Below are positions 1,695 through 57,904 of a stretch of 64,000 nt of DNA, in pieces; positions within the stretch are counted from its first letter, which is position 1, and the number at the start of each line of letters is the position of its first letter. The position numbers and the translations under genes were made by a program. Under the pieces are notes generated by a model. It made no database searches, was not told where the DNA came from, and was given only the letters and a program-made list of their open reading frames with translations. Source of the DNA: an uncultured Methanomicrobiales archaeon (lineage in GTDB: Archaea; Halobacteriota; Methanomicrobia; Methanomicrobiales; Methanospirillaceae); the NCBI GenBank assembly GCA_963697895.1, contig OY969100.1, forward strand, positions 64,001-128,000, written 5' to 3'.

Positions 1695-1695
1695 C

Positions 1696-7427: not shown

Positions 7428-7452
7428 TAATTTAAGGGATAAACCTTGCGGT
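7428..7452 (-). promoter_or_regulatory. Putative BRE/TATA promoter for the leader and Hjc-like genes
   Basis: Minus strand reads CGCAAGGTTTATCCCTTAAATTA, ~25-35 nt upstream of the ATG at 7408. Confidence 0.4.
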
Positions 7453-8225: not shown

Positions 8226-8476
8226 TCCACTCATTTTTCATCCTGAATCAGATGATTCCCTCTGATATTTATCTAAGGATTATCCCCGGGGTGTTCCGGT
8301 TGCCGGGATCTTCGACGTATGAAGAGTGCTGAAACGAATGATGACATTTTTTTATGAATCATAGGACACCCGCGAACCCTCTCTTATTCTGCTCGCGTGA
8401 AACACATCCATGTTGCCGGGATCCGGCTGATTAACGCCCGATCCATTGATCTATCATGACGGGATCCCCTGCCCTG

Positions 8477-10608: not shown

Positions 10609-10642
10609 GAGGGGAAGATCTCTCGCGAGAGGGTTTTTCCCT

Positions 10643-11968: not shown

Positions 11969-13087
11969 ATGATTGCAATCATTCTGGGAACACGCCCGGA
12001 GATCATCAAGATGTCCCCGATCATCCGGGAATGCGAGCGAAAGCATCGCGACTACTTCATCCTCCACACGGGCCAGCACTACTCGTACGACATGGATAAG
12101 ATCTTCTTCGACGAGCTCGAACTTCCCCACCCGAAATACAACCTCGACGTCGGCTCCGGGACCCACGCGGTCCAGACCGGCGCGATCATGGCCGGGACCG
12201 AGAAGGTCCTCGGAGACGAGAAGCCCGATATCGTCCTCGTCCAGGGGGACACGAACACGGTCGTCGCCGGGGCGCTCGCCGCCGCCAAGCTCCACATCAA
12301 GGTCGGGCACGTGGAGGCAGGCCTCCGGTCCTTCGACCGGACGATGCCCGAGGAGATCAACCGGGTCGTCGCCGACCACATTGCCGACTACCTCTTCGCG
12401 CCGACCGAGCTCGCCCGGCAGAACCTCGAGAAGGAAGGGATCCCCGAGAACCAGATCACGGTCACCGGGAACACGATCGTCGACGCCCTCCACGAGAACC
12501 TCACGATCGCCGGGAAGCGGAAGAGCATCCTCCAGGCCCTCGGCCTCAAACCGAAGGAGTACCTCCTCGCGACCGCCCACCGGCAGGAGAACGTCGACGA
12601 CCCCGCGCACCTCGCCGGGATCATCGCGGGCCTCAAGAAGGTACAGAAGTTTTCCGGCATGCCGCTCGTCTACCCGGTCCACCCCCGGGCAGAGAAGAAG
12701 ATCGCGGAGTTCGGCATCGACACCGACGGTCTCACAATGATCAAGCCGGTCGGGTTCCTAGAGTTTTTGCAGCTCGAGTCCCAGGCCCGGCTCGTCCTCA
12801 CCGACTCGGGCGGCGTCCAGGAGGAGACCTGCATCCTCGGCGTCCCCTGCGTCACCCTCCGCGAGAACACCGAGCGGCCCGAGACGGTCCAGGTCCGGGC
12901 AAACGTCCTCGTGGGGACGAACCCCGACGACATCTGCCAGGGGGCCGCCATGATGATGGACGCGGAGCCCGACTGGGAGAACCCGTTTGGCGACGGGTAC
13001 GCGGGAAGGATGATCGTCCAGATCAGCGAGAGTGTGAGGTATAACCGTGGGGCGTGTGGGAAGCGGGTTGGGGAAGAGGGAGGGTGA
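11969..13087 (+). CDS. wecB: UDP-N-acetylglucosamine 2-epimerase (non-hydrolysing), copy 2
   Basis: Same motifs as copy 1; close paralog. Confidence 0.95.
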   Translation: MIAIILGTRPEIIKMSPIIRECERKHRDYFILHTGQHYSYDMDKIFFDELELPHPKYNLDVGSGTHAVQTGAIMAGTEKVLGDEKPDIVLVQGDTNTVVAGALAAAKLHIKVGHVEAGLRSFDRTMPEEINRVVADHIADYLFAPTELARQNLEKEGIPENQITVTGNTIVDALHENLTIAGKRKSILQALGLKPKEYLLATAHRQENVDDPAHLAGIIAGLKKVQKFSGMPLVYPVHPRAEKKIAEFGIDTDGLTMIKPVGFLEFLQLESQARLVLTDSGGVQEETCILGVPCVTLRENTERPETVQVRANVLVGTNPDDICQGAAMMMDAEPDWENPFGDGYAGRMIVQISESVRYNRGACGKRVGEEGG

Positions 13088-13222
13088 TTTTTTTTCCGAA
13101 ATCCGATCACAAGAATCTGACGACGAATTAAAAGGCATTTTTAGTCCGTAATATATTTCGTCTTTCATCATTTATTTACTATATAATCCTCATAATGTCG
13201 AATAGAATTCAGGGGGGCGATT

Positions 13223-14165
13223 CTGAACGAAGTATGTTGTCACCGGAGGGGCAGGGTTTATTGGTTCGCATATATGCGGATCCTGGTCAACCAAGGTCAC
13301 GAAGTAATTATTTTGGACAATCTCTTTTCCGGGAAAGCAATAAACATCGACCAATCCTGAAAAATCCGAAGGTTGTTTTTGCAACAGACACAGTCACTTC
13401 CCCCGAAAGTCTTCAAAAAGCATTTGAAGGAGCTGATGGGGTCTTTCACCAGGCGGCCATTGCCTCAGTACCCCGTTCAGTGAAGAATCCACTTGCAACC
13501 AATGAAGCGAATATCACCGGCACCCTGAATGTATTGATCGCCGCCCGGGACTGTGGGGTGAAGAAAGTCCTCTATGCTTCATCATCCTCGGTCTATGGGG
13601 ACACTCCGACTCTTCCGAAACGGGAGGATATGAAACCTCTGCCCAAGTCACCCGTATGCAATCTCAAAATTGACCGGGGAATATTACTGCCAGGCCTTTT
13701 CTGAACTCTATGGGTTGAAGACGGTATCATTACGTTATTTTAATGTATTCGGTCCCCGTCAGGATCCGTCATCAGAATATGCAGCAGTGATCCCGAAATT
13801 CATCACCCGGATACTCAATAAGGAGCCTCCGATCATCTATGGAGATGGAAAACAAACAAGAGATTTTACCTATGTCAAAGATGTCGTCCAGGCAAATACT
13901 AAATCGATGACCAGCAATGCAGAAGGAATTTTTAATGTTGCATACAACAAACGGATTGATTTACTCGAGTCTTGGCTCCATTATAATGGATGAACTAGGT
14001 TCTCATTTCCCGCCACAATTTGAAGATTCCCGACCGGGAGACGTCAAAGATTCGTTGGCAGATATTACCGCAGCACAGAACGCGTTTGGATATTCCCCTG
14101 ATTATACCGTTCTTAAAGGATTACAGGAGACAATCGCATGGTACGAAAAGACATCACCAAACTGA
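13223..14165 (+). CDS. NAD-dependent nucleotide-sugar epimerase (WbpP/GalE-like), multiple frameshifts
   Basis: [55 protein letters not shown] and [12 protein letters not shown] spread over several frames; start approximate. Confidence 0.85.
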
Positions 14166-29058: not shown

Positions 29059-30186
29059 TCAATCAATCATTTTAAATAAATTTGTTTTTATTTTATTCCA
29101 ATCGAACTCGCTCTCTGCTAATGTCCTTGAATTATCTCCCATTTTGGAAAGCAGGGAATCAGGTATTTCTCTAATAGTTTGAATTCCTTCAACTAGACTC
29201 TCTGAATCGTAACCATCAATTACATATCCGCAATGATATTTTCTTACTAATTCTGCAGCATCACCAACATTAGTAGTTAATATTGGTTTTCCCATCGATG
29301 CATATTCAGCAAATTTTGTGGGTGCGGCGATTTCTGTAGCAGTGCTTTTGAACCTTGGTAGCACAAAAATATCTGCAATCGAATGGTACTTAATTATTTC
29401 ATGTCGTGGAACGTTGGGAATGCAGACGATATTTCTTTTTTTATATTGGATGTTCCCCCCAACAAATAAAAATACTAAGTTCTCATCGTGAATATGTTCT
29501 GCAGCATGGATTAAATTTTCCACACCTTGCCATTTTTGAAAACCTCCAATATATGCAAATATTTGTTTATCTTCGATTTTTAAATCTTCCCGAAGTTTTT
29601 CACGTTCTTTCTCACTCACATTATTAAAAAAATTTAGATCAACACCATTAGGAACATAGTATATTTTTTCAAGGGGAACTTTTTTTTGATGTATATAATG
29701 TATCATTTTTTTTGATACACAGACTATTTTGTTCGAAAATTTAATTGAACTCAAATTTATAATTATATTCTGAAAATATTTTAGCAAATAACTTGGGCTG
29801 TATTGGAATGGGTTTGAAATTAAAAACTCCTCAAAGCCGTCCCCATGGAAATCAAGAATCAAAGGAACCTTGATAAGTTTTCCGAGAAGAGAGACAAAAC
29901 AATACGGGGTAGCATTGCCATAGACTAAATCATACCTATTGTTAAGTAAAAAATTTAAATGTTTAATTGGTATTAAATATCGTGACGAAGATAAAAAATA
30001 ATGCGTAGAACCAATTTCATCAATGAATTCTCGTTTTACGAAATTCTTATTTAATATACCAGGTGCAAGTGGATAATGGATATAATCCACACGATGCCCC
30101 AGTGACGATAATAATCTCCCGATATTTGTTACCCGCAAATAATATGCAGAACAATCGGGTTCACCGCAAACAGATAAAATCCGCAT
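29059..30186 (-). CDS. Glycosyltransferase family 4
   Basis: VPNGVD, YIGGFQKWQG, PTKFAEYASMGKPI. Confidence 0.9.
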   Translation of the reverse strand: MRILSVCGEPDCSAYYLRVTNIGRLLSSLGHRVDYIHYPLAPGILNKNFVKREFIDEIGSTHYFLSSSRYLIPIKHLNFLLNNRYDLVYGNATPYCFVSLLGKLIKVPLILDFHGDGFEEFLISNPFQYSPSYLLKYFQNIIINLSSIKFSNKIVCVSKKMIHYIHQKKVPLEKIYYVPNGVDLNFFNNVSEKEREKLREDLKIEDKQIFAYIGGFQKWQGVENLIHAAEHIHDENLVFLFVGGNIQYKKRNIVCIPNVPRHEIIKYHSIADIFVLPRFKSTATEIAAPTKFAEYASMGKPILTTNVGDAAELVRKYHCGYVIDGYDSESLVEGIQTIREIPDSLLSKMGDNSRTLAESEFDWNKIKTNLFKMID

Positions 30187-30190
30187 TTTT

Positions 30191-31412
30191 TCACCAAATC
30201 ATACGATTTTTGTTGATTTTTCGATATAAGAAAGCAATATTTTCGGGAATTGCAAATAAAATATCTCTTTTTGTAATTGGTGAATGGTTAATAGATTGTA
30301 TCTTAAAATTTTCTTCTTCAATTATATCCAAATTTAATTGGTGAAAACCTGCATTTATCGATAATTCTTTGCACATTATCGGGCGCATTTTTTTATTTAT
30401 TTTTACATACCTGATTAATCTCTCAAAATTCTCTATTTGCTGTAAATTCCCCTCTCTGAAGGGATGACATAATATTGTTATATGGTTTTCATTTTCTTTA
30501 TGAATTTGAAAGGTTGTATCAATCATGTTTTTTATAGTAAACCAAGGTTTATTGTAAGTTTCCACATTAATCGGTATCGATATGATCTTACCTCTATTCG
30601 ATGTAATTGAAGTGGGATATGAATGATATTTCAGATAGCTCGAATAACCTGTAATGGTTCAAGGCCGGATAAACAAAATAACCAATATTATTTTCAATCA
30701 AACTTGATACAGTGTCTTTGTTCATCCTCCCGATGAAATTTGCTCCAAAAATTTTTACATTTATATCTTTAATCATCATATCAATCAAATGTCTTTGTCC
30801 AAATTGGTCAAATGTGGAAATATATTCATGGAAATTTCCATGTATTGCAATTTCATGTTCCTCAGTGAAAATTACATCCAAAAATTGAGGATATATTTTT
30901 TTCATTAGATTTGTGATGAAAAAAGTTGCTTTAATATCATATCTTTTTAATAGCGGTAAAATCCTTGTGAGACCGTATCGAACACATCCAAATTGTTCCA
31001 CGTCAAAAATTAATGAAAAAGTTCCCGAATAATTTCTTAAATCCTCATTGGGCAAAATATTTTCGGAGATATCGAAATTAATGTCATTGTTAAAATTAAA
31101 AAAATCTTCATATAATGTTTGCATTTCAAGAGTTCTGAACTGTTGATCTATACCACTAAATGAGGAATAACCAATCCTTAATCTATTCGTCACGGAACCG
31201 ATATTAATTCTATTTTCGACCTGGTCATTTCTTGAATATAATACAAAATCAATATCGTTCATTAACACATTTTCCCGTAAACGTTCGATACTATCAGATA
31301 ACTTTGAGTAATCCAGTACTTCCCAATAAATATTCCAATCTGCAGAAAGTCGACTCGTGTTTAAATATTGGATATCTTCCGGATCGGCAATGATAAGGAC
31401 GTTATTTTTCAT
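30191..31412 (-). CDS. Polysaccharide deacetylase (NodB-like) domain protein, frameshift near 30630
   Basis: FDVE, KATFF, HEIAIHG..H, later ILCHP. Confidence 0.72.
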
Positions 31413-31619
31413 TATAAAAATCTTCCTTTCTCGATGGCGATAATCTGCAAATTGGAATTGAATATTTAATAATCTTTGCAGAAAAACAATTTAAATATGG
31501 TGGAATATCAAAATCAATAACAACAAATAAACCGAAATAATAAGTTACCATCCTTTTTATTTACTAATCCTGGGGGTTCTATCATATCATATAGGGAAAA
31601 TCAATGGCGGAAAACATAT

Positions 31620-32348
31620 TTGAAGCATGTATTTTTAAGGATTGCAGGATATCCAAGTCTAATCCGCCGATTGCAGGCCCCTGTGCTAATAAGGATGTTA
31701 GCCCCAAAAAATAATGAATCAATATTAGATTTAGGATGTGGCAATGGAATTTTTACGTATGAATTTTCGGAAAAATGTGATAATATTTGTGGATTAGATC
31801 AATCAATAAACAATGATTTAGCATTGGCTGCACATTTCTCTCCGTCAATTTCATTGATAAAAGGAAATGTGCAATATCTCCCCTTTAAAGAGCGCACATT
31901 TGACAAGATCCTCTTATCAAGCATTCTTCAGATGATTGATGATGATAAAAAATTATTATATGAATGTCTTAGAGTACTGAAAGATGACGGATTGTTAATA
32001 GTATCAGTCCCACTCGATTATGTTTATATTAAAAATCTTAACAAAATAAAATCGGATTTAAATATAAAATTTGGTTCAACTGGAAAAGGATTTTATAGAA
32101 AACAGGATATCGGTTTTTTATTGGAAACTACAGGATTTGAAATAATCGAAGTTGAATATGCTCCAAAAAGATGGGGATCATTTGTTTATGAATTATGGTT
32201 ATATCTTTGTTATCGGTCTGGATTTCCCTTATTTCACTCTGCCTATTTTTTTTTGCTATATCCGATAGCATACTGTGATCGTTTTGAAAAAAAAGATAAA
32301 ACGGGATGTGAAATTATAATTAAAGCAAAAAGAATTACTATTCCTTAA
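31620..32348 (+). CDS. Class I SAM-dependent methyltransferase
   Basis: ILDLGCGNG, LPF...FD, RVLK.DG.LIVSVP. Confidence 0.85.
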   Translation: MKHVFLRIAGYPSLIRRLQAPVLIRMLAPKNNESILDLGCGNGIFTYEFSEKCDNICGLDQSINNDLALAAHFSPSISLIKGNVQYLPFKERTFDKILLSSILQMIDDDKKLLYECLRVLKDDGLLIVSVPLDYVYIKNLNKIKSDLNIKFGSTGKGFYRKQDIGFLLETTGFEIIEVEYAPKRWGSFVYELWLYLCYRSGFPLFHSAYFFLLYPIAYCDRFEKKDKTGCEIIIKAKRITIP

Positions 32349-33511
32349 ATATTTTTCAATACCAATTCATTAAATAAAATTGCATAATTTGAAGAAATTA
32401 TTTTCCAATCATAATGTTGTTGAACCAATGAATAATTTAATTGAGCAAAATTTTTAATTAATTCCTCATTTTCAAACGAATAAATCATTAATTCGGAGAG
32501 TTGTTTATAATTCCCCACTTCGAATAAAAAACCATTCTCCCCATTTTTAATTAAATCCTTAGGTCCCCCGTTAATGTTTGTGGCAATTATTGGGATTTTG
32601 AAAAGCATGGCCTCCAATATCGTAATGGGGAATGATTCTTGGTAGGATGTCAGAATGAATAAATCGCATGACTTGTAATATTGATAAACTTCCGGGGGAT
32701 TTACAAATCCTTCAAATTTGATATAATCAAAAATCCCCAATTCTTTTGATAATTGTTCTAAGTTCTCCCTTTCCGGACCTTCTCCGATAATATATAAACG
32801 AGATAATGGATATTTTTTTATGAAAATCCCAAATGCTTGTAATATTTGTTCAATTCCCTTAATTTTCACTAATCTGCCAACAAATAGAATTTTGGGGGAA
32901 CCAGTTAATTGAATATATTTAATATTCTTTTCAATATCAATATCAATACCGTTTGGAATAATTTTAATTATTGATTTTTTAAAACCAAAATGCTCAGGGA
33001 TAACCAAAGAATACTTACTTGAAACAATAACTCTATCAAAAAAATTTCTTTGTAATTTAACCAAGAATCGACCAAATCGATGGAATAAATTCTTGCTATC
33101 GTATATACCTCCATATCCATGAAAAATTAAGACTTGTTTCACTCCCATAATTTTATAGCACAATGGTGACAGTAGAGTAATATCAATAGGAGGAGAATTA
33201 TAAAAAATAATATCAACTTTTTCATGAACAATCATTTTTGTTAATAATATAATCTTAAACAAAATTTGAGGGAAATTCAAAAACAAATTTTTATCATAAT
33301 TGATCATAATTGGAATTATTTTGATATTATTTATTTTAAATTCCTGATTATTCTGAATTTGTAAAAGTTGTTTTCTATTCATTACACGAACAAAAAGAAT
33401 TACTTCACACTTTTCTTTTATTAGCCCTTTTGCCAAAAAATATCCAACATTGGCCGGACCACCTATTTCAATGGGGTAAATGCCAGATGTCGCAATAATT
33501 CCTACTTTCAT
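32345..33511 (-). CDS. Glycosyltransferase family 4
   Basis: IPNGID, FVGRL..KG, GEGPER, ESFPITILEAM. Confidence 0.92.
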   Translation of the reverse strand: MKVGIIATSGIYPIEIGGPANVGYFLAKGLIKEKCEVILFVRVMNRKQLLQIQNNQEFKINNIKIIPIMINYDKNLFLNFPQILFKIILLTKMIVHEKVDIIFYNSPPIDITLLSPLCYKIMGVKQVLIFHGYGGIYDSKNLFHRFGRFLVKLQRNFFDRVIVSSKYSLVIPEHFGFKKSIIKIIPNGIDIDIEKNIKYIQLTGSPKILFVGRLVKIKGIEQILQAFGIFIKKYPLSRLYIIGEGPERENLEQLSKELGIFDYIKFEGFVNPPEVYQYYKSCDLFILTSYQESFPITILEAMLFKIPIIATNINGGPKDLIKNGENGFLFEVGNYKQLSELMIYSFENEELIKNFAQLNYSLVQQHYDWKIISSNYAILFNELVLKNI

Positions 33512-33559
33512 ATAAAATCTTCTTCCTCTTACCGAGAATTCATTGATTTTTTTTAGATT

Positions 33560-34609
33560 TTATTTTTTATCAATATTCAACCCGTGACGATCTCCACGTT
33601 TGTTTCTGACATAATATCCAAATGAATTATACAGATTCCGACAGACCTGTGAAGTCAAGAAAAATTCATAAAACCGGCTTTTCATTAGTTCGTGAGTTAT
33701 CCTATCTATATCTAAGGAGATATTAAAAAAAATTCTCTCTTTCGTTGTCATTTTAATATCATCAATTGAATTGATTCCTTGAAGCATGAATTCTCGGTCA
33801 AACAGATGGGGAAATTCAACAGGCTTGCCGTCGATATAAATCATTTTTTTGATTGCTAATAATCGTTCAAGACCCAGATTGAACAAATCTCCCCACCCCA
33901 TTCTTTCGGCATATTTCTTACATGTATCAATATCTATTGTATTCATAAGAGATTTAAATTGCAAAAAATCCAATAAAGTCATCCTCCTATGGCCAAATAT
34001 ACTATGAACAAGAAGAATTAAAAAATTTGCTTCATCATTGAGACTCCGATAATTAATTCCGAATACATTGTCCCGTTCTGAACATTTCCACAAAAATTCG
34101 GGTTCAATAAATTCTTTTGAGAGGTAACTAATTTTACAATAAATATCTAATTTTAAACACCCTGATTTTCTGAAGGAGCTTTCTACTTCATTTGAATATA
34201 TAATCTGCATATTTTCACTTTTAAGGATATGAAATATTTTTTCTTTTTCATTTTCATGAACGAAAATATCAATATCTCGAGGGATATGCGAAATTTTGTT
34301 ACAGCTTTTAATTACGAAAAAGTCTATTCCATATTGGTTTTCGAGATAATTTAAAAAATTTAAGGAATTTTTAAAATTTTCGAATCTTTTGTTTTCGATT
34401 GCCCAACGATTTTTATTATGTGGTTGAAAATGAAAATCTTCAGAAAGTCTGTTCATTAATCCAAAGTATAATCCATTAATATCGGAAAATTTGATAATTT
34501 CATTCAACAATTTTCTATCTCCGATAATCATTCCTGGATCAATTTTTTTAGAATAGTCATAATCTAATATTGACAAGACAAAATCAGTTAAACTGAATTT
34601 ATTTGTCAT
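33560..34609 (-). CDS. Uncharacterised nucleotidyltransferase-superfamily protein (NTP_transf_5-like)
   Basis: VIKS....PRDIDIFV (DxD), KLDIY, L.H....H, LLD. Confidence 0.6.
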   Translation of the reverse strand: MTNKFSLTDFVLSILDYDYSKKIDPGMIIGDRKLLNEIIKFSDINGLYFGLMNRLSEDFHFQPHNKNRWAIENKRFENFKNSLNFLNYLENQYGIDFFVIKSCNKISHIPRDIDIFVHENEKEKIFHILKSENMQIIYSNEVESSFRKSGCLKLDIYCKISYLSKEFIEPEFLWKCSERDNVFGINYRSLNDEANFLILLVHSIFGHRRMTLLDFLQFKSLMNTIDIDTCKKYAERMGWGDLFNLGLERLLAIKKMIYIDGKPVEFPHLFDREFMLQGINSIDDIKMTTKERIFFNISLDIDRITHELMKSRFYEFFLTSQVCRNLYNSFGYYVRNKRGDRHGLNIDKK

Positions 34610-34613
34610 ACAA

Positions 34614-35235
34614 TCACATTTTCTTGTAACTTTGGATACTATACTGATATATTATATCATGGATTTCGTCTTTGTTAAGACTTGCCTCAATTTTAATGAA
34701 TTTCTGCGTTTCTGCAATGATCTTATAATAATTCATTATTTTAATATAATATGTCATAGAAATTGCTTTATCCTCTGAATTCGTCATTCTTGAATAGAAT
34801 AAATCTATATCCCCTTCCAAAAAAAAAGTCAAATCAGGTTTTGGAAAAAATCTAACGATTCTTATAAGCTCTATCATCGAAAATATCAAAAAAAAATTGA
34901 TAAAAATATCTATCACAAACAACGATTTTGTTCTGGAATGCTATTTTTATGAAAATAAATGTAGTTATTCCATAAGAAAAACCTATTAAACCAAACACCA
35001 TTTTACTAAATCGAGAAATTGTTTTTTTTTGAAATTTTTCATTTGTTTTCTGTCTTCTCGGACTCATATTATTGGAAATCAGATTACTCAAGTTGAATAA
35101 ATCAGACAAAAAATAAATTGGTCTCACATATTCAACGGAATAGCCTGCTTTTTTTAACCGATCATATAATCTTTGTGATTGAGTAGTTTTTCCACAACCA
35201 TCAATGCCTTCAATGGCGATAATAATTTGAGATCT
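34614..35235 (-). CDS. Thymidylate-kinase-like P-loop kinase, frameshift near 34860
   Basis: IAIEGIDGCGKTTQ, VVCDRYFY, PKPDLTFFL; start uncertain. Confidence 0.75.
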
Positions 35236-36436
35236 CCTCCTGATATAATTTCGCAAATTTTCTCGCAAGATAATTTATACTATTATTTTCAGAGATAAAG
35301 CATGAACCATTTATTCCCATAATTTTTGCCTCATTCTGATGTTCAATAAGATATTTCAAAGCATGTCTAATTTCTTCAACATTATTCGGTGCGATCAGTA
35401 TTCCATTATGCTTATTAAAAATTATCTCCGGGATGCCGCCTACCGATGTCGCAATAATAGGTTTTCCGCAAGACATGGCTTCTAAAATCGACAACGGTTG
35501 ATCAGCAACACCATCTGTGTTTCGGAAGGGAGCTACAAATACATCACAAGCCGCCATTAAAAAATTAATATCCTTAATAATTCCTAATTCGATAACATAT
35601 TCCGTTAGATTAAGATTTTGAATTGCGTTCGAAATCTTGCACTTTTCTTCATCGTACCAATTATACGGTTCTCCCCAAGCTAGGATCAATTTTATGTTTT
35701 TGTGATTTTGAATTAATTGCGCAACTGCTGAAATTAATAGATCAACTCCCTTCCATGTCGCCCAGTTTCCGCAATAAAGAATAATAAATAAATCATTACC
35801 CAATTTTAATTTATTTTTACAACGATCTTTTGATAAGTCCAGATTAAAGACACGACTATCAACGATGGGTGGAGTGTATTCAATAAAATTATTGTCTAAT
35901 CCAATTTTTTTTAGGGAAGATAGTATGTTCTTACTCAAAACTGTAATTTTTCCTGCATTGGAAATCAGAATCTTTGAAAGAAAAACTGACGAAAATAATT
36001 GATACATCCCTTTTCTATCCCTCAATGGTGTAATTTGGATGGGGGAATATAAGGTAAAAAAAAAAGGGACATCTAAAAATAGTTTTAATAAGGCAGGTAT
36101 AATCCCAAAAATAGAGTATCCCGAGTGAAAATGAATGATCTCAAAATCACTTTTATTTTGTTCTGAAATAATTTTTGGTATGATCTTTAACAAGAATTCA
36201 ATATTATTAATAAAAGATCCATATCTAAAATGTATACGGATTGGAATAATAATAATACCATTATAGGTATAGTGTTTTCCTTGTAAATTATTATTGACAT
36301 CCGAAGTAATTATCGTTATCTGATGACCATTTTCAAATAACCCCTGTGCTAGTCTTATCGTATTATTAACCAAACCTCCAGTAAATGCACCACCTTGTGA
36401 AGGAACAATTTCAGTACCAACAATGCATATTCTCAA
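35210..36436 (-). CDS. Glycosyltransferase family 4
   Basis: WKGVD, ACDVFVAP, PLSILEAMSCGKPIIATSVGGIPE. Confidence 0.92.
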   Translation of the reverse strand: MRICIVGTEIVPSQGGAFTGGLVNNTIRLAQGLFENGHQITIITSDVNNNLQGKHYTYNGIIIIPIRIHFRYGSFINNIEFLLKIIPKIISEQNKSDFEIIHFHSGYSIFGIIPALLKLFLDVPFFFTLYSPIQITPLRDRKGMYQLFSSVFLSKILISNAGKITVLSKNILSSLKKIGLDNNFIEYTPPIVDSRVFNLDLSKDRCKNKLKLGNDLFIILYCGNWATWKGVDLLISAVAQLIQNHKNIKLILAWGEPYNWYDEEKCKISNAIQNLNLTEYVIELGIIKDINFLMAACDVFVAPFRNTDGVADQPLSILEAMSCGKPIIATSVGGIPEIIFNKHNGILIAPNNVEEIRHALKYLIEHQNEAKIMGINGSCFISENNSINYLARKFAKLYQEEISNYYRH

Positions 36437-37382
36437 GCAAAATTCCCCGAATGATTCTTAAAAATTTTTCACATATCCCCCTCCAAAATCCAAGTGCATA
36501 TGCAGAATGTTCTATCAGATATACAATTGGAATTGTAATTAAAAATCTTAAATCACGTTTCACTACGACTCCATGAATTCCCATTATAAAAATCAAAAAT
36601 AGATATAGTATAAAAAATGCAACAAAGATAATAGGTGATACAATCAAGGATAAAACCAAAAAAAGAATCAATATTGGAGGGACAATCTGAAAATTTAGTG
36701 TATTGACATTTGCTCTTCCCTGTCCATATTGATACATTCTTTTACAAAAGTCACTCAATCCTCTTTGATGTTTATGAAAAATAATTGCATGAGGAGTATA
36801 CAACAATTTTCCGAGAGCCAATAATCTTTTATTTAATTCCGTATCTTCTGCTGTCTTTAAATAAACATTAAATTTTCCCACTTTGATGAGATCTCTTTTT
36901 CTATAGATACTATTGCTACCGCTGATACTGCTAACAAATTTTTTATTTTCAAAAATTCGACCTTGAACAGAATTTGCACTACCAAGAAACGTATTATAAA
37001 CAAAATTTATGGAATTCTCCCAAATTCCGTAGCCAATATTAATCACCCTTCCACCAACACCAACTATTTCTTCATTGAATTCTTTAATCAGATTCTGCAG
37101 CCAATTTTTATCAGGTATGCAATCAGCATCGGTAAATGCAATTAATTCTCCTCGTGCATTTTCAATTCCAATATTATTTGCTCCTGCTCTTGTATGATAT
37201 TCTTCAAAAAAAAGATTAATCGGATATTTCTTCGCATTAGCAACAGTATTATCCGTTGAATGACCATCAACTACAATTATTTCAATTGGTAAAACGCTTT
37301 GACATAAAATCGCTTCAAGACATGTACAAATCTTTGATTCTTCATTTCTCACTGGAATGATCACAGAAATTGACGAATTCAT
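36411..37382 (-). CDS. Glycosyltransferase family 2 with C-terminal membrane helices
   Basis: ISVIIPVRNE, VVDGHSTD, AFTDADC, AEDTEL. Confidence 0.92.
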   Translation of the reverse strand: MNSSISVIIPVRNEESKICTCLEAILCQSVLPIEIIVVDGHSTDNTVANAKKYPINLFFEEYHTRAGANNIGIENARGELIAFTDADCIPDKNWLQNLIKEFNEEIVGVGGRVINIGYGIWENSINFVYNTFLGSANSVQGRIFENKKFVSSISGSNSIYRKRDLIKVGKFNVYLKTAEDTELNKRLLALGKLLYTPHAIIFHKHQRGLSDFCKRMYQYGQGRANVNTLNFQIVPPILILFLVLSLIVSPIIFVAFFILYLFLIFIMGIHGVVVKRDLRFLITIPIVYLIEHSAYALGFWRGICEKFLRIIRGILLENMHCWY

Positions 37383-37389
37383 TTTAATG

Positions 37390-37873
37390 CCTCACATTCG
37401 GTACTCCTGTGAAGGGACCTCCTAAAACATCTGCATCATCCCGATTCCAGCACTTAGCAACCCATATTAATAACACGGTTGATCTCATCAGTCATGCTCC
37501 GGTCAAAATAATGGAACAACCCTCCTTCAACATGGCCGAAAGTGCTTATGAAGTATTACTGCCTCAAGGGCACCGACCATGACTGTGTTGGTGTCGCCCT
37601 TGATCAACACCATATCGGTATGTTCCTTTTCCAGGACCCGCTCGACACCCATCATGATCTTTCCTGTCTGCTCAGTATGAGTCCCGGACCCGACATCGAT
37701 TTTATATTGGGCTCCTGGGAGCGCAAGTTCATCAAAGAATACCCGATGCATCTCGTAGAAATAGTGCTGACCAGTAGGAATATGATACTAAGGGATATCC
37801 CGGTCCTTACACCGGATGATTGGAAACGGGTTTTAATGATCTCGGGTCGAGTCCCATGGACAATTGCAATCAA
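37390..37873 (-). pseudogene. wecB: Third, truncated and decayed wecB
   Basis: MIAIVHGTRPEIIK, MHRVFFDELALPG..Y.IDVGSGTH.EQTG, GDTNTV; frameshifts and loss of the C-terminal half. Confidence 0.85.
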
Positions 37874-39116: not shown

Positions 39117-39656
39117 CTCGGGAATGTGCACGGGAATGAGCGGAAGGTGAAAAGAAGATACCCCAAATATCCTCCCCACCAAATATATATATGACGATAT
39201 TCGGCTCAGGGAATATAAAAGGTTCCGTTTCGCAGGGAGATGGTAAAGAATCGTTGACATTCGTTGGTGAACGGAAACGCGGTCATGATAGTTTTTTGGG
39301 AACCGGGATCGTCATTGTCGCTCCACAATTCTCATCGCGATCCGGGGTAAAAATGCATCAGACCCGGCGCACCCGGACGGGAGAGTTCACCATGGTGCCC
39401 CGGATCGACTCAGAAACCATCAGGAGGCTGAAAAACTACCGTGACCTTCGCTTCTTTCCTCCTTTCCCCGTCCGTCCCCCCGCTCTACCCGGGGGGTTCA
39501 CAGATGGAACATTGCGTACCGGATATTGTCACCTGGCATAGGGAGTTTTGTCATTGCCGCGACGAGCAGCGAGTAGTAAGGTTGCCGGCGGATGAACCCC
39601 CTGTCAAGTGTCCCCCTCCCACATGAATATCGGCGAGACCAAACGATTTGATCCTT

Positions 39657-39902
39657 TTGGTAAGCACTTACGTTATCTGTGTCATGGACTGGAGACTCCG
39701 CCTTCACCGGTCAAGAAGGGGATGGAGCACCTGCGTGACCGGGTGAACTGGAACGAAGAGAATCCGGCAGTTCATCGGGAGAAAGATCGAGGAGGAGCGA
39801 AAACGGGACCTCCTCCAGAAACTGGAAGCCCGTATCACGCACTCCCCAGCCCCCAGAGGGACTGCATCCCGACTGGTGAGGGAGGATCGTGACCGTCATT
39901 GA
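39657..39902 (+). pseudogene. Decayed VapB-type antitoxin
   Basis: KKGMEHLRDRVNWNEE / IRQFIGRKIEEE...GTASRLVREDRDRH across frames; typical archaeal antitoxin ending. Confidence 0.65.
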
Positions 39903-40345
39903 CGGCGCGGCATACATCGCATTTCTGATTGGTGAAGAAGGCGGGGAGGCTGTCCGGCCCTGGCTTGATCCGGAGAGGGCTCCCCGTTCGGTTTTCCCTC
40001 CTCCTGACAGAAAGCGGCAACGTTCTCTGGAAATACTTCCGTGCAGGTGCTATTCCGGAGGAACGGGCGATTGACGGCTCTATACCATGACAGGGGATAT
40101 CTGCCGTGAGGTAACGAGTGATCAATCGCAGATCGAACCGCTGACGAGAGAATTATCAGACATGGCGGCAGCTCTGGATGACATTAAATGCGGCGGACGT
40201 CTCGCAGCATAAAACACGCCCATCCCTTCTATGATCATGCTGTTTGTCGCTCAGGCGATGGAAACGCATGAAGGGCTGGTAACGGGAGATACCCTGCAGG
40301 CTCCGCAGGTTGGACCGACAAAAAAGTGTGAAATTGACGTCTTTT
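39889..40345 (+). pseudogene. Decayed VapC (PIN) toxin
   Basis: VTVIDGAAYIAFLIGEEG at the start; FYD..LFVAQAMETHEGLVTGDTLQA near 40225-40300. Confidence 0.65.
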
Positions 40346-40436
40346 TTATCGGATGGAGAGGCATCCCGGGCAATCCAGGATACCGGATCATCGTATCGCC
40401 AACCTGACGGAAACACACCGCGTCTCTCCGGCGGTA

Positions 40437-40520
40437 CCCCGATCACGACCGCCCCGGCGAATCATCCACGATCGAAACGTGATCGATCCGTGCATAATAT
40501 ATTGTTCATCGAGCCGGAGG
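40437..40520 (-). repeat. Decayed copy (R4) of the eamA 3' end
   Basis: CCCGATCACGACCGCCCCGGCGAATCATCCACGATCG vs eamA CCCGATCACCACCGCCCCGGCGATCATCACGATCG (43174-43208). Confidence 0.75.
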
Positions 40521-40542
40521 AAACGCAATCTGGTCGGAAGCA

Positions 40543-40650
40543 CCCATCCTCACCCCGCGACCGGTCACACCGCACCGGTCATCCGGGCACGGATGTGTTG
40601 TTCATGGAGGAGGAGCCGGCCGAAGAAAACGCGAAGAAGATCATCTGGCG
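40543..40650 (-). repeat. Decayed copy (R3) of the eamA 3' end including the stop codon
   Basis: Minus strand reads IFFA.FFGRLLLHEQHIRARMTGAV..AG* vs eamA IFFAVLFGWLILHERHISARMTGAIV...VG*. Confidence 0.85.
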
Positions 40651-40663
40651 GGGAAATAATCGG

Positions 40664-41044
40664 TCAGTACGGAAGGACCGTCAACCCCGGGACAGCAGTG
40701 AAATGGGTGTCCCGGGAGACGATCGCATCGTTCTGCCGGAGTGCAATGGCGGCGATCAGCTCGTCGAACGATGAGACCCTGTTTCGACTTTGCCTGAGCT
40801 CCGCTGCTATATCTGCGTAGATCATCGCCGATTCGGTATCGAAAGGAAGGATAGGAAAATGGGCGAGAAATGTCCGGGCGGCATCGAAGAGACCGGGCCG
40901 GGTACTGATCCGTGCGCCATAGAGGAATTCAGCGGCTGAAACCGAGGTCGTTCTTAACAAGGGCTCATTTTCCGCAAACCGGATCGCTCCCGGATCTTCC
41001 CGGATCAGGTCGATCAGAAAGCAGGTATCGACGATGCTCACCAT
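40664..41044 (-). CDS. vapC: VapC PIN-domain toxin
   Basis: IVDTCFLID, SAAEF..G, FDELIAAIA, IVSRDTHF..VPGL. Confidence 0.9.
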   Translation of the reverse strand: MVSIVDTCFLIDLIREDPGAIRFAENEPLLRTTSVSAAEFLYGARISTRPGLFDAARTFLAHFPILPFDTESAMIYADIAAELRQSRNRVSSFDELIAAIALRQNDAIVSRDTHFTAVPGLTVLPY

Positions 41045-41271
41045 CCCACCTCCCGCGGCCGGGCCTCGTCGAGCTCCTTCTTTACTCTGGTGACCGAGAG
41101 AGCCAGCTCTTCCCGGAGGTCGGGGGAGAGCGACCGGACAAATTCGGTCACCGATTTCCGTTCTCCCTGGGATAGACGGAGGATAACGTCAGAGAAACTT
41201 TCCCCCTCATGCTTCATTGATTTCAAAGCCTGGTATGCGGATTCCTTTATGTTGATCGTCTTCGTTGCCAT
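41038..41271 (-). CDS. vapB: VapB antitoxin (DUF217-type)
   Basis: MATKTINIKESAYQALKSMKHEGESFSDVILRL; overlaps vapC. Confidence 0.88.
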   Translation of the reverse strand: MATKTINIKESAYQALKSMKHEGESFSDVILRLSQGERKSVTEFVRSLSPDLREELALSVTRVKKELDEARPREVGW

Positions 41272-41523
41272 ATACTGTGTATACACAGTATGTGAGGAAA
41301 GAACATAGAGATTACGTATAGGCGAGGAGGAAGCCGGTTCAGGTAACTCACGGAGTCACCCCGCAGATAGATCCATCCCCCCATGAAAAGCAGGAGAACG
41401 TTTTAGTAGTTTTTGCAGGATAATACCGAGCACCTGAGAAGATTTCCGTTTCCCCCACCTGCCACCACCGGTTGCGATGCCCCGGGAATACCTCTTGCTT
41501 ATTCTCACATTCCCGTTAAAACC

Positions 41524-41650
41524 CCCATCCCTCACCCCGCGAGCCCGGTCACCACCGCCCCGCCGATCATCACCACCGCACCGGTCTCCCGGGCCCGGAT
41601 GTGGAGGAGGAGCCGGGCGAAGAGGACGGCGAAGAAGATCGCCAGACCCG
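41524..41650 (-). repeat. Diverged copy (R2) of the eamA 3' end including the stop codon
   Basis: Minus strand reads LAIFFAVLFARLLLH---IRARETGAVVMIGGAVVTGLAG* vs eamA LSIFFAVLFGWLILHERHISARMTGAIVMIAGAVVIGLVG*. Confidence 0.92.
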
Positions 41651-41725
41651 GTACCGTTCACACCGGTGTTATTCAAAACCGGCATAGGTAATTTTTATCT
41701 GGTGATTTACCCAATGTCTGGTCAT

Positions 41726-42028
41726 ATGAGGCTTGCAGGAGGTCGAATCCGGGCTCTCCGGGATAACCGGGAGGAGATCCTCCGGATTGCAGCGGCGCAT
41801 GGGGCGCGAAACATCCGTCTCTTTGGATCGGTCGGCAGAGGCGAGGACTCGGAAGAGAGTGACATCGATTTCCTGGTGGAGTTTGATCCGGGGAGAAGCC
41901 TCCTCGAGCATGTCGGGTTGATCCAGGACCTTGAGGATCTGCTCGGGTGCCCGGTGGACGTGGTCACAGAACGTGGCCTGCACTGGTATATCAGGGACCG
42001 GGTGGTGAAGGAGGCTATGCCGCTGTGA
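41726..42028 (+). CDS. Minimal nucleotidyltransferase (MNT) antitoxin
   Basis: LFGSVGRGEDSEESDIDFLV (GSx10DxD) and LEDLLG.PVDVVT. Confidence 0.9.
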   Translation: MRLAGGRIRALRDNREEILRIAAAHGARNIRLFGSVGRGEDSEESDIDFLVEFDPGRSLLEHVGLIQDLEDLLGCPVDVVTERGLHWYIRDRVVKEAMPL

Positions 42029-42360
42029 AAGATGACCGGCTCTACCTGATTCATATCAGGGAATGCATCCGGAAAATTGAATCATACACCTCCGGAGGCC
42101 GCGAGTCATTCATGACATCACCGATCCAGCAGGATGCGGTGATCAGGAACCCTGAGATCATCGGTGAAGCGGTTAAAAATATCTCCGGACATACATTGGC
42201 ATCCTACCCGGAGATACCCTGGCGGAGGGTCTCCGGACTCCGTGATCTGCTTATCCACCGGTATATGGGAGTCGACCCGGAGGAGGTCTGGAGCATTGTC
42301 GTACAGGATATACCTGCCCTGAAAGAGGTTGTTCTTCAGATGTGTGACGCACAGGAATGA
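42025..42360 (+). CDS. HepT-like HEPN RNase toxin (DUF86)
   Basis: GTG start; DAVIRN.EIIGEA, PEIPW, RDLLIHRY (Rx4H). Confidence 0.9.
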   Translation: MKDDRLYLIHIRECIRKIESYTSGGRESFMTSPIQQDAVIRNPEIIGEAVKNISGHTLASYPEIPWRRVSGLRDLLIHRYMGVDPEEVWSIVVQDIPALKEVVLQMCDAQE

Positions 42361-42500
42361 ACCTGATTATCTGGAGTGACCGGATGATCTCCGGGACCAG
42401 GATAATCCTATATCTATGCATCCCAGACACGATAGCCCCGGAACCGAACCGCCTCTGACTGAAGAAGAATATAAAACCGCAGTCTTTACTGCTGAATCTG

Positions 42501-42713
42501 TTATTGAGTGGGCGGAAAGGATCGCTCACACCCCGATAGCGCAGGCGATAAACCCGTTCGTGCGGTAAATATCCGGCTGTATCGTATGGGCTTTCCGCTT
42601 AGGGGGTCGTTGACGATCTTCGCAATCTGTTTTTTTACCCGTTCCCTGAGTCTGGCATCCTTGATCTTCCGGATGGTCTCTTCAAACTGCTCGCCGCAGG
42701 GGACGGTCACCAT
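42501..42713 (-). pseudogene. RelE-family toxin, decayed C-terminus
   Basis: FEETIRKIKDARLRERVKKQIAKIVNDPLSGKPIRYSR, after which similarity is lost. Confidence 0.7.
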
Positions 42714-42870
42714 ACTGCCAGCTCTTCAAGAAAGTCGCTCCCGCTTTTTGTGGAATATGTTCCCGATTTATATTCTGCAAATGCTTTTTCGGTCTGTTCC
42801 GCGAAGAGAATATCTTCACGCAGGGCCGGTTCCCGTTCATCGAGAGGTTTGAGCATAAATCGTTCTATCA
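42708..42870 (-). pseudogene. C-terminal half of the antitoxin belonging to the RelE remnant
   Basis: FMLKPLDEREPALREDILFAEQTEKAFAEYKSGTYSTKSGSDFLEELAVW*; stop overlaps the RelE ATG; N-terminus missing. Confidence 0.6.
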
Positions 42871-43110
42871 ATACGCAGGGGCGGTCTGCTCATCCCGCAC
42901 CTCTTCATCATGCTCTTCATGGATCCGGTTGAGGTCCAGCTCAGGTATGGTACCAAAAAGGTCGGAGAGCGGCTTTATCGGCCGAAGTTCTATCCGGTTT
43001 TCATCCGCATCAAGGGTGAAGAGGGCGGAAAAGCGTTTCCGGATCTTACCCCGGATCCTCCCATTTTTATCCATTTTTACTAACTCTGCCATATTGATCA
43101 ACATATGGCA
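42868..43110 (-). CDS. AbrB/MazE-like antitoxin whose toxin is reduced to a stub
   Basis: MAELVKMDKNGRI...IRKRF....IELRPIKPLSDLFG; overlapping ATG reads MSRPPLRID. Start approximate (ATG 43092 or slightly upstream). Confidence 0.6.
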   Translation of the reverse strand, partial: CHMLINMAELVKMDKNGRIRGKIRKRFSALFTLDADENRIELRPIKPLSDLFGTIPELDLNRIHEEHDEEVRDEQTAPAY

Positions 43111-43161
43111 TAATACTAATTCAGGAAGACCACAGCGATTCGACGGATACACTCCTCTCCC

Positions 43162-44256
43162 TCACCCCACGAGCCCGATCACCACCGCCCCGGCGATCAT
43201 CACGATCGCCCCGGTCATCCGGGCGCTGATGTGCCGTTCGTGGAGGATGAGCCAGCCGAAGAGGACGGCGAAGAAGATGGAGAGGCGCTTCACGGTGATC
43301 ACGTAGGGGACGATCGAGAGGGTGTACGCGGTGTTGATCGAGATCCCCTCGAGGGCGAGCATCGCCCCGACGGCCGCGAACGCGAGGGGGGCGGGATAGG
43401 GGAACGGGGTATCGGGCTGGTTCCGTGTTATGGATGAGTCCTGGCTGTCCGGTGTGCTCCGCGGATCCGCCGGTGAGATCTCCCGTTCAGGCTTCAGTTC
43501 GTCCGGTGTGCTCCGCGGATCCGCCGGTGAGATCTCCCGTTCAGGCTTCAGTTCGTCCGGTGCGTTCCGCGGATCCGCCGGTGAAGTGATCTCCGGTTTC
43601 GGTTCGTCCCGTGCCCCGCCTCCCCGTGACAGGAATGTGCCTTTCCTCCCGGCAACGACCGCGATGAGGAGGAAGGAGACGGCGAGGAAGAGGGACGTCA
43701 GCCCGGCGCCGAAGATCGGGCCCGAGTTGGTCACCACCTCCTTGTCGTAGTTGACCGAGATGCTGTAGAGGAACGCGACGAGGATCATGAGCTGTACCCC
43801 GCGTTCGGAGCGGAGCGTGTGGAACGGGGTGAGCAGGGAGGCGTCCCCGGGTACCCGGGCGAGGAGGAAGGCCCCGGCGGTGACGAGGAGGATCCCCGCG
43901 GCGCCGGCCGCGGAGGGGAGCTCCCCGAGGATGACGAACGAGGTGAGGATGAGGAAGACCGGGGTGAAGGCGAGCATCGGCACGCAGAGGGAGAGGTCGG
44001 TGGTGGAGAGTGCCCGGAGGAAGAGGATCGTTGCCGCGATGTTGATCGCGACGGTGACCGCCAGGGCCGGAAAGAGCCCCGGGCCGAGGGGCGGGATGCC
44101 GGAGAAGAAGGCGACGAGGAGGAGGATCGCGGAGGCGGCGAGGTACGAGAACCCGGCGAGCACGTAGGGGGAGAACCAGCGGAGGAGGACCTTGAAGGAG
44201 AGGCTTTCCGCCGCCTGGCTTACGGCACCGATCAGCGCGAGGGGGAACCAGAGCAT
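43162..44256 (-). CDS. EamA/DMT-family transporter with a repeat insertion in a loop
   Basis: About 10 hydrophobic helices, DLSL..P.LAFTP.F, LGE.PS..G..GI, YVITVKRLSIFF. Confidence 0.9.
   Translation of the reverse strand: MLWFPLALIGAVSQAAESLSFKVLLRWFSPYVLAGFSYLAASAILLLVAFFSGIPPLGPGLFPALAVTVAINIAATILFLRALSTTDLSLCVPMLAFTPVFLILTSFVILGELPSAAGAAGILLVTAGAFLLARVPGDASLLTPFHTLRSERGVQLMILVAFLYSISVNYDKEVVTNSGPIFGAGLTSLFLAVSFLLIAVVAGRKGTFLSRGGGARDEPKPEITSPADPRNAPDELKPEREISPADPRSTPDELKPEREISPADPRSTPDSQDSSITRNQPDTPFPYPAPLAFAAVGAMLALEGISINTAYTLSIVPYVITVKRLSIFFAVLFGWLILHERHISARMTGAIVMIAGAVVIGLVG
43449..43610 (-). repeat. 54-bp coding tandem repeat (18 aa PDELKPEREISPADPRST), about 3 copies
   Basis: CCGGTG.G.TCCGCGGATCCGCCGGTGA recurs at 43449, 43503 and 43557. 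Confidence 0.93.
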
Positions 44257-44421: not shown

Positions 44422-44646
44422 ATGCAGATCCTACGATTTTCTGTCGTTATCGAGAAAGATGCCGACGGCTATGTCGCATTCGTTCCCGACCTCCCGGGAT
44501 GTTATACCCAGGGCGACACCTATGAAGAGGTCGTTCTCCAGATACGTGACGCCATCAGGCTCCACATCGAGGACCGGATGAGCAGGGATGAGCAGATCCC
44601 ACAGCCCGAACTGGTGAGCTTCACCACGGTGGAAATTCCGGTATGA
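44422..44646 (+). CDS. hicB: HicB-family antitoxin
   Basis: FSVVIEKDADGYVAFVPDLPGCYTQGDTYEE...IRDAI. Confidence 0.9.
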   Translation: MQILRFSVVIEKDADGYVAFVPDLPGCYTQGDTYEEVVLQIRDAIRLHIEDRMSRDEQIPQPELVSFTTVEIPV

Positions 44647-44858
44647 AAGAGAAGCTGCCACGGGTTGAGGCGGTGGTGGTGATATCAGCCCTCGAAAGGA
44701 AGGGTTTTGTCCTTGTCCGCCAGAGCGGAAGCCATAAGATATTCCGGAATGAGCAGGGTATACGGGTTACCGTACCCTGTCACGCGGGAAAGATCCTGCA
44801 TCCGAAAATTCTTCGTGCGATCCTCACTGACGCAGATCTTTCCCCCGAAGATCTCTAA
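44643..44858 (+). CDS. hicA: HicA-family toxin
   Basis: LERKGF..VRQSGSHKIF...RVTVP.H...L.P..LRAIL. Confidence 0.9.
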   Translation: MKEKLPRVEAVVVISALERKGFVLVRQSGSHKIFRNEQGIRVTVPCHAGKILHPKILRAILTDADLSPEDL

Positions 44859-50130: not shown

Positions 50131-50359
50131 TGGGAGGGGGACACCACCTCCCCGTCCCTCCCCCGAATGGGATAGGACTGGATAGGGATATGATTCAATA
50201 AAGTTTTTTTTTCAACTGGTATCCTGGCTTTACCTCTGGTACTGTATCAGAATATCGTTGGATGGATTTGGGGTTCTTTTGAAAATTGATTATATTCCGG
50301 ATCAACCTCCTATCCCATTTGGGGCGCCGCAGCGGCGGGGCGAAGCCCCGGGAGCGTCA
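50131..50359. repeat. REP-like composite: purine/pyrimidine hairpin ending ATGGGATAGG (50131-50176) and GC-rich unit starting CCTATCCCAT (50309-50359)
   Basis: 10-bp inverted ends; the right unit recurs at 57731 and 57820. Confidence 0.75.
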
Positions 50360-50406
50360 GAAATATACGAAACATTCAGCAATCGTTTCGAACCTAAAAA
50401 AAAAAT

Positions 50407-57716: not shown

Positions 57717-57869
57717 TGAGAATGAACACTCCTATCCCATCCGGGCGCCGCAGCGGCAGGGCGAAGCCCCGGGAGCGTCATCGGTTTTGATGAACCTCAA
57801 TAAGAATGAGAATGAACCCCTTATCCCATTGGGGACGCCGCAGCGGCGGGGCGAAGCCCCGGGAGCGTC
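57717..57869. repeat. Two tandem REP-like units (90-bp period)
   Basis: TGAGAATGAAC..C.TATCCCAT...GCCGCAGCGGC.GGGCGAAGCCCCGGGAGCGTC at 57717 and 57807. Confidence 0.9.
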
Positions 57870-57904
57870 TCCAAAATACTAAACCTATCTAGTCCGAAGA
57901 GCCA

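Follow-up and report, generated by a model that had tools for sequence, protein, structure and literature searches.

Chromosomal integrons, such as the Vibrio superintegrons, are arrays of small cassettes, many of them toxin–antitoxin (TA) modules, which are split by a recurring sequence and grow at one end. Integrase-mediated islands at the 3′ ends of tRNA or protein genes restore the gene with a surrogate end and displace the old one, and displaced ends can pile up. The movement of chromosomal TA or defence-type genes that have no transposase or integrase nearby is poorly understood. Here we analyse a 64,000-nt stretch of the genome of an uncultured archaeon of the family Methanospirillaceae (contig OY969100.1, positions 64,001 to 128,000; hereafter the window), in which the 3′ end of eamA, a transporter gene, recurs three times downstream of the gene among TA modules. 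This array is real and grew by repeated insertion, and we read it best as stacked, recombinase-free insertions with long target duplication rather than an integron-like site.

Insertion with long target duplication was reportedly described for restriction–modification (R-M) systems by Nobusato et al. (2000, Gene 259:99). A survey of such insertions (Furuta 2010, PMC2853133) leaves their mechanism open in its treatment of the question and, in its account of the screen, retains no archaeal case; the passage of Mruk and Kobayashi (2013, PMC3874152) on this mode ascribes it to R-M systems only. As these texts portray the R-M insertions in the relevant parts, the eamA locus resembles them in carrying small addiction units, with no transposase or integrase, flanked by direct repeats that measure tens to hundreds of bp, and in that the repeats are single-copy in genomes without the unit, often lie over a gene 3′ end and vary in length. 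A type I R-M island flanked by 245-nt repeats is present in the window genome as well (L043, see below). The differences lie in the cargo, which here consists of TA pairs (VapBC, MNT-HepT) where the survey looked for R and M genes; in the archaeal host; in the stacking of several events at one gene end; and in copies that look mosaic, pointing to the mechanism that the R-M papers, in the parts concerned with it, left open.

The closest mechanistic analogue is found in the C-terminal displacement arrays of Rhs, contact-dependent inhibition (CDI) and type VI secretion system (T6SS) loci, for whose sequential growth Kirchberger et al. (2017, PMC5361080), in the part that sets out their model, propose homology-facilitated illegitimate recombination (HFIR): homology-anchored modules displace resident 3′ ends into strings of orphans. 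In the loci portrayed there, the displaced ends are variable toxin domains with immunity genes, whereas what is displaced at eamA is the conserved terminus of a transporter gene unrelated to the cargo, a TA operon in its own right. With integrons the locus shares an array of small TA cassettes that is split by a recurring sequence and grows at one end; it differs in having no IntI or attI beside the array and no attC-type palindromes, in cassettes that bring their own leader, and in a separator that is the end of a host gene. It differs from integrase-mediated islands in that neither the cassettes nor the genome hold an integrase, the breakpoints vary and the units measure 0.8–1.5 kb. A full-text literature search, judged at the level of titles and abstracts and so not proof of absence, found no paper on TA cassettes inserted in this way. 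New here are the TA cargo, the archaeal host and the serial accretion, within a known and little-studied process.

Copies of the eamA 3′ end and the modules between them

The last ~120 nt of eamA are present in three extra copies downstream of the gene, all in the same orientation (R2, R3 and R4, Table 1). They were found by a BLAST search of the single-contig genome (2,091,725 nt, estimated to be 93.85% complete) with the last 181 nt as query (43140-43320), and again by nhmmer with a profile of 14 orthologous eamA ends. Neither search finds a fourth extra copy in the 2.09 Mb genome: the remaining BLAST matches have E values of at least 0.0145 and span at most 47 nt, and the profile returns nothing beyond R2, R3 and R4. 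The initial annotation of this DNA had reported three same-orientation copies, at coordinates that agree with both searches to within a few bases, and had read them as displaced eamA ends left by recurrent insertion behind the gene. All of this holds, the recurrence being supported both by the three displaced ends in the window and by other arrangements in contigs from related populations (see below).

The copies differ in their state of preservation. R2 (~120 nt) reads in frame to a stop codon despite a 9-nt deletion, as had been noticed before. R3 (~100 nt) carries a frameshift and a 24-nt deletion and still encodes an orthologue-like LLLHEQHIR stretch. R4 (~85 nt) lies ~20 nt behind R3 and is the most decayed copy; its 3′ half, together with ~20 nt past the former stop codon, aligns with the resident eamA end and its flank. 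The residues common to R2 and R3 (LLLH, IR-R) had been taken as derived states shared by the two, an interpretation that the comparison with orthologues reverses: these residues are those of most orthologues, and it is the resident end, reading LILHERHIS, that has changed at the positions where R2 and R3 keep the typical residues. A codon-position test on the divergence of R2 and R3 gave an even spread of mismatches (5, 5 and 3; 6, 2 and 6), which is uninformative or reflects neutral decay.

The start of eamA itself is set at the ATG at 44256, the open frame extending to 44358 in the list of open reading frames (ORFs), and its orthologues show 43–73% identity. Inside the gene, positions 43447-43608 comprise three tandem 54-nt units, two of them identical and the third 61% identical in the ungapped register, which code for a linker, rich in Pro, Asp and Glu, that separates the two EamA domains. 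One of the contigs from related populations lacks 108 nt in this region, equal to two of the units.

Table 1. Features of the eamA array in the window, and the two cassettes of the same layout elsewhere in the genome (G000, the genome that contains the window).
Feature	Position	Strand	Evidence
eamA, two-domain EamA/DMT transporter gene	43162..44256	(-)	Pfam PF00892 EamA, E 2.3e-19
Resident eamA 3′ end, reference copy of the repeat	43162..43290	(-)	BLAST, nhmmer, alignments
R2, displaced eamA 3′ end	41524..41650	(-)	BLAST 41528-41639, 82%, E 3.6e-29; nhmmer 41526-41646, E 3.7e-17
R3, displaced eamA 3′ end	40543..40650	(-)	BLAST 40571-40641, 85%, E 1.3e-15; nhmmer 40570-40641, E 4.8e-13
R4, displaced eamA 3′ end	40436..40520	(-)	BLAST 40438-40474, 92%, E 2.2e-6; nhmmer 40436-40519, E 2.6e-4
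AbrB/MazE-like small gene, directly behind eamA	42868..43089	(-)	ORF
relB-like ORF	42707-42856	(-)	ORF
Truncated relE/ParE-like ORF	42501-42713	(-)	ParE-like_toxin E 0.01, profile 5-37 of 87; weak
HEPN C-terminal-like fragment	42416..42568	(+)	Pfam HEPN E 0.092, profile 92-116 of 117; weak
MNT	41726-42028	(+), opposite to eamA	Pfam NTP_transf_2 E 8.2e-15
HepT	42025-42360	(+), opposite to eamA	Pfam HepT-like E 1e-28
vapBC cassette between R2 and R3	40651..41523	(-)	
VapB	41038-41286	(-)	Pfam VAPB_antitox E 1.1e-14
PIN/VapC	40664-41044	(-)	Pfam PIN E 2.7e-17; NCBIfam VapC families below cut-offs
Ruined vapBC beyond R4	39747..40404	(+)	VapB remnant, then frameshifted PIN-like pieces
hicB-hicA pair, upstream of eamA	44423..44858	(+)	Pfam HicB_lk_antitox E 3.1e-14, HicA_toxin E 6.8e-18
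MNT-HepT cassette behind lon (L048)	G000:1195500-1198700, 995-2249		two copies of the last 210 nt of lon, 96%
MNT-HEPN cassette behind DUF4336 gene (L046)	G000:1082500-1085800, 855-2377		two 159-nt gene-end copies, 84%

The intervals between the eamA-end copies, 0.02–1.5 kb long, contain only TA genes or TA fragments and no mobility genes, and the DNA differs from one interval to the next. Adjacent antitoxin and toxin genes match type II and type VII TA families (VAPB_antitox with PIN, NTP_transf_2 with HepT-like, HicB with HicA) and are predicted to form modules of these types. The vapBC cassette between R2 and R3 opens with a 237-nt leader that has a palindrome before vapB, and ends 13 nt past the vapC stop codon, where R3 begins. 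It is 74% identical in nucleotide sequence to the vapBC located upstream of eamA in G009, a relative from another genus of the same family, the homology being confined to the coding region; the window's MNT-HepT pair is ~70% identical to a pair in the same relative.

That TA modules surround the copies, as first read from the DNA, is borne out by Pfam for MNT-HepT and VapB-PIN and by NCBIfam for the VapB remnant beyond R4 (39747-39899; NF050799, E 3.8e-11, profile 23-69 of 69). The PIN-like pieces behind that remnant were identified solely by reading the translation and have no Pfam or NCBIfam match at permissive thresholds. Of the abrB and relE fragments that had been named next to eamA, the relE/ParE assignment is weak, and the AbrB-like gene matches neither Pfam nor NCBIfam at permissive thresholds; its similarity to AbrB/MazE-type clusters of a protein atlas (0.83–0.86) lies under the counting level of 0.9 and is a lead only. 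The hicBA pair on the other side of eamA has no long repeat on its flanks in the flank tests.

Cassettes at other gene ends and in related populations

A genome-wide self-comparison for local direct repeats, followed by Pfam searches of the loci, found TA cassettes in the same arrangement behind lon and behind a DUF4336 gene (Table 1), neither gene end having sequence similarity to that of eamA. One layout is common to these two cassettes and the vapBC cassette: a gene-end copy, a leader of 163–237 nt, the antitoxin gene, the toxin gene, 6–14 nt, and a second gene-end copy. Each of the three runs in the direction of its host gene and contains no pseudogene debris. A single lon end without a cassette is present in 11 of 11 relatives examined; in one of them, G014, the empty site consists of lon, 348 nt and then a conserved SIMPL gene. 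Both lon-end copies are equidistant from the orthologues. At eamA every orthologous locus examined likewise has a single end, but none shares the downstream flank, so that no true empty eamA site was found among them.

By the definitions of Furuta 2010, the insert at eamA is shorter than 20 kb and free of other mobility genes, and its direct repeats all exceed 30 bp; the empty site that these definitions also ask for is seen at lon (G014) and not at eamA. TA modules are enriched between such repeats: a census of TA families counted 10 modules, of which 4 have long direct repeats on either side, whereas a flanking repeat at the same threshold was present for 6 of 400 random 900-nt segments. The remaining six modules, without flanking repeats, comprise three of hicAB type, two of ParE type and one fused MNT-HepT. 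The last is a 219-aa ORF (G000:1752994-1753278; L049 2474-3133) with a HepT-like match (E 2.0e-14) and, by eye, an MNT-like N-terminal half in which Pfam NTP_transf_2 has no match; its neighbours, also by eye, are an aspartyl-tRNA-synthetase-like gene and a CofD-like gene.

In three of three pairs, the gene-end copies differ with the same polarity, near-identical at the 5′ side and diverged at the 3′ side. The lon pair has 1 mismatch in its first 147 nt and 6 mismatches plus one indel in its last 62 (permutation p 0.0245); the DUF4336 pair has 1 mismatch in 43 nt at the 5′ side and 21 in 114 at the 3′ side (p 0.063); and eamA and R2 have 0 in 22 and 13 in 90, respectively (p 0.18). Because an unselected distal copy cannot hold 5′ identity while its 3′ part diverges by 10–20%, the copies look mosaic, and the alignments suggest that each pair consists of a shared block followed by an arm from another version of the gene end. 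Mosaic copies are what would be expected if a cassette arrived attached to the gene end of a donor. The 22-nt block that is identical between eamA and R2 was considered as an att core and rejected, a run of this length not being unusual at the mismatch rate (estimate ~0.08; change-point p 0.18).

Natural variants of the array come from assembled contigs of related populations, drawn from four runs of three studies, which are 88–99% identical to the window (at least 88% likeness was required). The sampled share of the window's words per run is 0.06–0.10, and parts of the window that the contigs leave uncovered are uninformative. In runs X1 and X2, an eamA-end copy that starts at ~43224/43238 comes directly after the AbrB-like gene (joints 43224/43238 to 42868/42865); in related populations this gene forms a cassette of its own with an eamA-end copy behind it. 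In X2 and X7, relBE (42865 to 42572) is followed by 120–123 other letters and then by an eamA segment from 43379/43376. These 120–123 letters suffice to complete relE, and the homology of 42501..42856 in the window to the relBE of the related populations ends at 42572. X1 and X2 contain a further eamA segment, from 43314/43340, preceded by a piece like 40152-40194, and X1 has a vapBC that is 96.5% identical to that of the window with a different upstream junction. As the contigs come from relatives and not from this strain, these variants represent structural polymorphism rather than ongoing excision.

Across the window and these contigs, at least four 5′ breakpoints are seen at eamA: ~43280-43290 for R2 and R3, and ~43230, ~43330 and ~43378 for the others. 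Of the copies checked for a shared 5′ breakpoint, as the initial annotation had proposed, R2 and R3 start within ~7–10 nt of each other and the related-population copies start elsewhere. Such variation at one gene end argues against a single recombination site.

Orthologous eamA loci were also compared in 7 relatives' genomes, 8 genome_contigs records (at least one of them shared with those genomes) and 24 metagenome loci, and none of these 7 + 8 genome and 24 metagenome loci has a second eamA-end copy. The scans returned 15 eamA loci in genome_contigs (best 68%) and 35 in metagenome_contigs (best 73%), with no relative close enough to show alternative arrays.

In G009 (L023, G009:C43:2100-16100, 4590-11435), eamA is embedded among TA genes. 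Upstream of the gene lies a vapBC; directly downstream are six or more modules, including VapBC, HEPN-MNT, VapB-like with ParE, a truncated MNT-HepT, and MNT-HEPN.

Origin of the array

The initial annotation had inferred that the eamA 3′ end is a recurrent integration site and the array integron-like, with any recombinase acting in trans, and had suggested a search for inverted core sites. Neither a dedicated recombinase nor such core sites were found. The genome has one match to PF00589, ~72 kb from the array, and this sole tyrosine recombinase is XerA (NF040815, 267.6 bits against a cut-off of 220); no Resolvase (serine recombinase) and no SSV-type integrase match occurs in the whole genome. 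No inverted repeats bound the eamA-end copies or the cassettes, no motif or microhomology is shared by the ends of the four cassettes compared, and the boundary sequence of the eamA cassettes is the coding end of eamA. With varied breakpoints and the same layout at lon and DUF4336, an integron-like or integrase-driven site specific to eamA is not supported; the fallback offered beside it, that capture is homology-driven, is the best-fitting of the options first proposed.

We consider it probable, although not strongly so, that the array arose by several independent, recombinase-free insertions of TA cassettes behind eamA, that is, by insertion with long target duplication, each insertion having duplicated the last ~75–220 nt of the gene. 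In the sequence of events that we infer, the cell would receive DNA of a relative that already has a TA cassette behind its orthologous gene, and homologous recombination would anchor this DNA within the conserved 3′ portion of the gene. An illegitimate join would then link the far side of the cassette to a second chromosome copy, at a position that lies upstream of the anchor. The donor end would complete the gene and the recipient's own end would be pushed behind the cassette; repetition at eamA would stack displaced ends outward, as R2, R3 and R4. Overall this would be HFIR that produces a duplication. A join across chromosome copies has a precedent in Johnston 2013 (PMC3784515), where, in the part concerned, integration of donor DNA between sister chromatids is shown to be able to produce duplications. 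Gene ends would be the observed sites because only insertions that leave the host gene whole survive, and TA modules would persist because they are addictive. The TA genes that flank eamA in G009 make donors with eamA-linked cassettes plausible and, combined with the anchor, would explain why eamA is a hot spot.

Several observations weigh against this explanation. The polarity tests are individually weak, with lon alone reaching p < 0.05; moreover, the same polarity is expected of an att-type core that comes with a surrogate gene end, so that the polarity test cannot by itself separate the two models. The starts of R2 and R3, so close together, fit a fixed site or common descent. The interval next to eamA is scrambled, with MNT-HepT inverted and relE truncated, and the window has no counterpart of the eamA-end copy that separates the AbrB-like gene from relB in related populations; for this interval the explanation needs additional deletions or inversions. 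The TA array of G009 has no eamA-end copy detectable by blastn, tblastn or the nhmmer profile, so TA arrays can form or persist without such copies. The polyploidy of the organism is assumed, and to our knowledge HFIR has been demonstrated in bacteria only.

A different use of the same repeats is conceivable and, in our view, unlikely: Campbell-type capture, in which circles consisting of a cassette and its own eamA end are looped out through recombination of the flanking copies, transferred, and re-integrated at any eamA end by a single homologous crossover, so that the array would be an integron-like cassette system run by host homologous recombination. The related-population cassettes each carry a characteristic eamA-end copy, as if cassette and copy travelled together, and some of the backward joints in those contigs also fit tandem amplification; a cycle of invasion, repeat-mediated amplification and release is proposed for R-M units in the relevant part of Furuta 2010 (PMC2853133). 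A single crossover, however, predicts differences spread over the whole repeat, whereas the pairs show a near-identical 5′ block and a diverged 3′ arm, and the first circle to hold a piece of the gene would itself need an illegitimate event.

Improbable as well is site-specific tandem accretion, with the eamA 3′ end as attB, a tyrosine or serine integrase acting in trans or since lost, and elements that each supplied a surrogate gene end and have decayed to their TA modules. An identity block followed by a diverged arm is the classical picture of attL and attR, the starts of R2 and R3 lie within ~10 nt, and TA genes are typical survivors of decayed elements. Against it stand XerA as the only tyrosine recombinase in a genome with no serine or SSV-type recombinase, the four or more eamA 5′ breakpoints across populations, and the absence of inverted repeats and of a shared core at the boundaries. 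The cassettes are also tight, ending 6–14 nt past the toxin stop at three unrelated targets with no pseudogene debris, and for a crossover core, identity blocks of 43 nt (DUF4336) to 147 nt (lon) would be long.

Duplication of eamA, or of its end with downstream DNA, followed by decay or replacement is largely refuted and, together with an assembly artefact, very improbable: unequal crossing-over can yield direct repeats, R3 and R4 are nearly adjacent, and the breakpoints do vary, as the initial annotation had expected of ordinary duplication, but the tandem eamA genes that it had linked to the same explanation are found in none of the relatives examined, the downstream DNA holds nothing of the first ~200 residues of EamA, for which every tblastn match has E > 0.1, the DNA between copies varies, no orthologous locus examined has a second copy, and copies of 82–92% identity, which an assembler can neither collapse nor duplicate, have similar structures in independent contigs from other runs.

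Repeat-bounded cargo elsewhere and meaning for the family

Long direct repeats bracket other cargo in the same genome. Locus L043 (G000:1165500-1180500, 1425-13556) is an 11.6-kb block between direct repeats of 245 nt with 86% identity, which correspond to the 5′ end of a calcineurin-like phosphoesterase gene; the block carries aldehyde dehydrogenase, an ABC transporter and type I R-M genes (HsdR, HsdS, HsdM). In each of the 5 relatives compared, this repeat occurs once, but no homology to the right flank was found in them. At L041 (a block behind a CxxCxxCC gene), L047 (a giant surface-protein gene), L044 and L042, duplicated gene ends or gene starts of 117–304 nt (79–94%) surround 2–9 kb of unrelated cargo, which includes flavodoxin-like and glycosyltransferase genes and a 1896-aa RCC1/PKD/NosD surface protein.

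The window has two further features away from the array. Direct repeats of 53–73 nt, 86–92% identical, lie 7.4–7.5 kb apart at 50301-50373 and 57717-57884 (contig positions 114301-114373 and 121717-121884), the second site having a local tandem copy. A block of 26–35% G+C at ~30000-37400 adjoins a region of 52–68% G+C; an ORF within it, 36411-37382, resembles a family-2 glycosyltransferase by eye only, and the block, next to the TA region, probably represents a surface-glycosylation island of foreign origin.

Another genus, represented by G008, has a repeat-bounded array of a different kind. There (L129, G008:C185:3000-9208, 2100-5600), three TA modules, namely MNT-HepT, HepT-MNT and an antitoxin with a RelE-like toxin, are split by four repeats of ~130 nt with 82–83% identity. 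This repeat is dispersed and not a host gene end, and it is absent from the window genome. Its ~60-nt core has 31 matches on at least 20 contigs, many of them close to the end of a contig, and 7 of the 9 HepT matches in G008 have the core within ~1.2 kb; the two tyrosine recombinase matches of this genome are both on contigs other than that of the array. Of 29 HepT loci in relatives, 5 show a direct repeat on their flanks; two of these 5 (L107 and L126, both in G008) were inspected, and the count is not proof of gene-end duplications. The G008 array hints that repeat-bounded TA cassette arrays may be general in the family.

A broader possibility, to which we give a low probability, is that the spread of addiction modules among these methanogens relies on recombinase-free cassettes tied to the 3′ ends of conserved genes and inserted by a one-sided homologous anchor and an illegitimate join across polyploid chromosome copies, without loss of the gene, and that repeated anchoring builds strain-variable, integron-like arrays. 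Events stacked at a single site, natural variants of the array in related populations and mosaic copies come together at the eamA locus, which in this way offers a mechanism that can be tested. If that mechanism is true, it would explain why cassettes sit at the 3′ ends of genes and why particular genes become hot spots.

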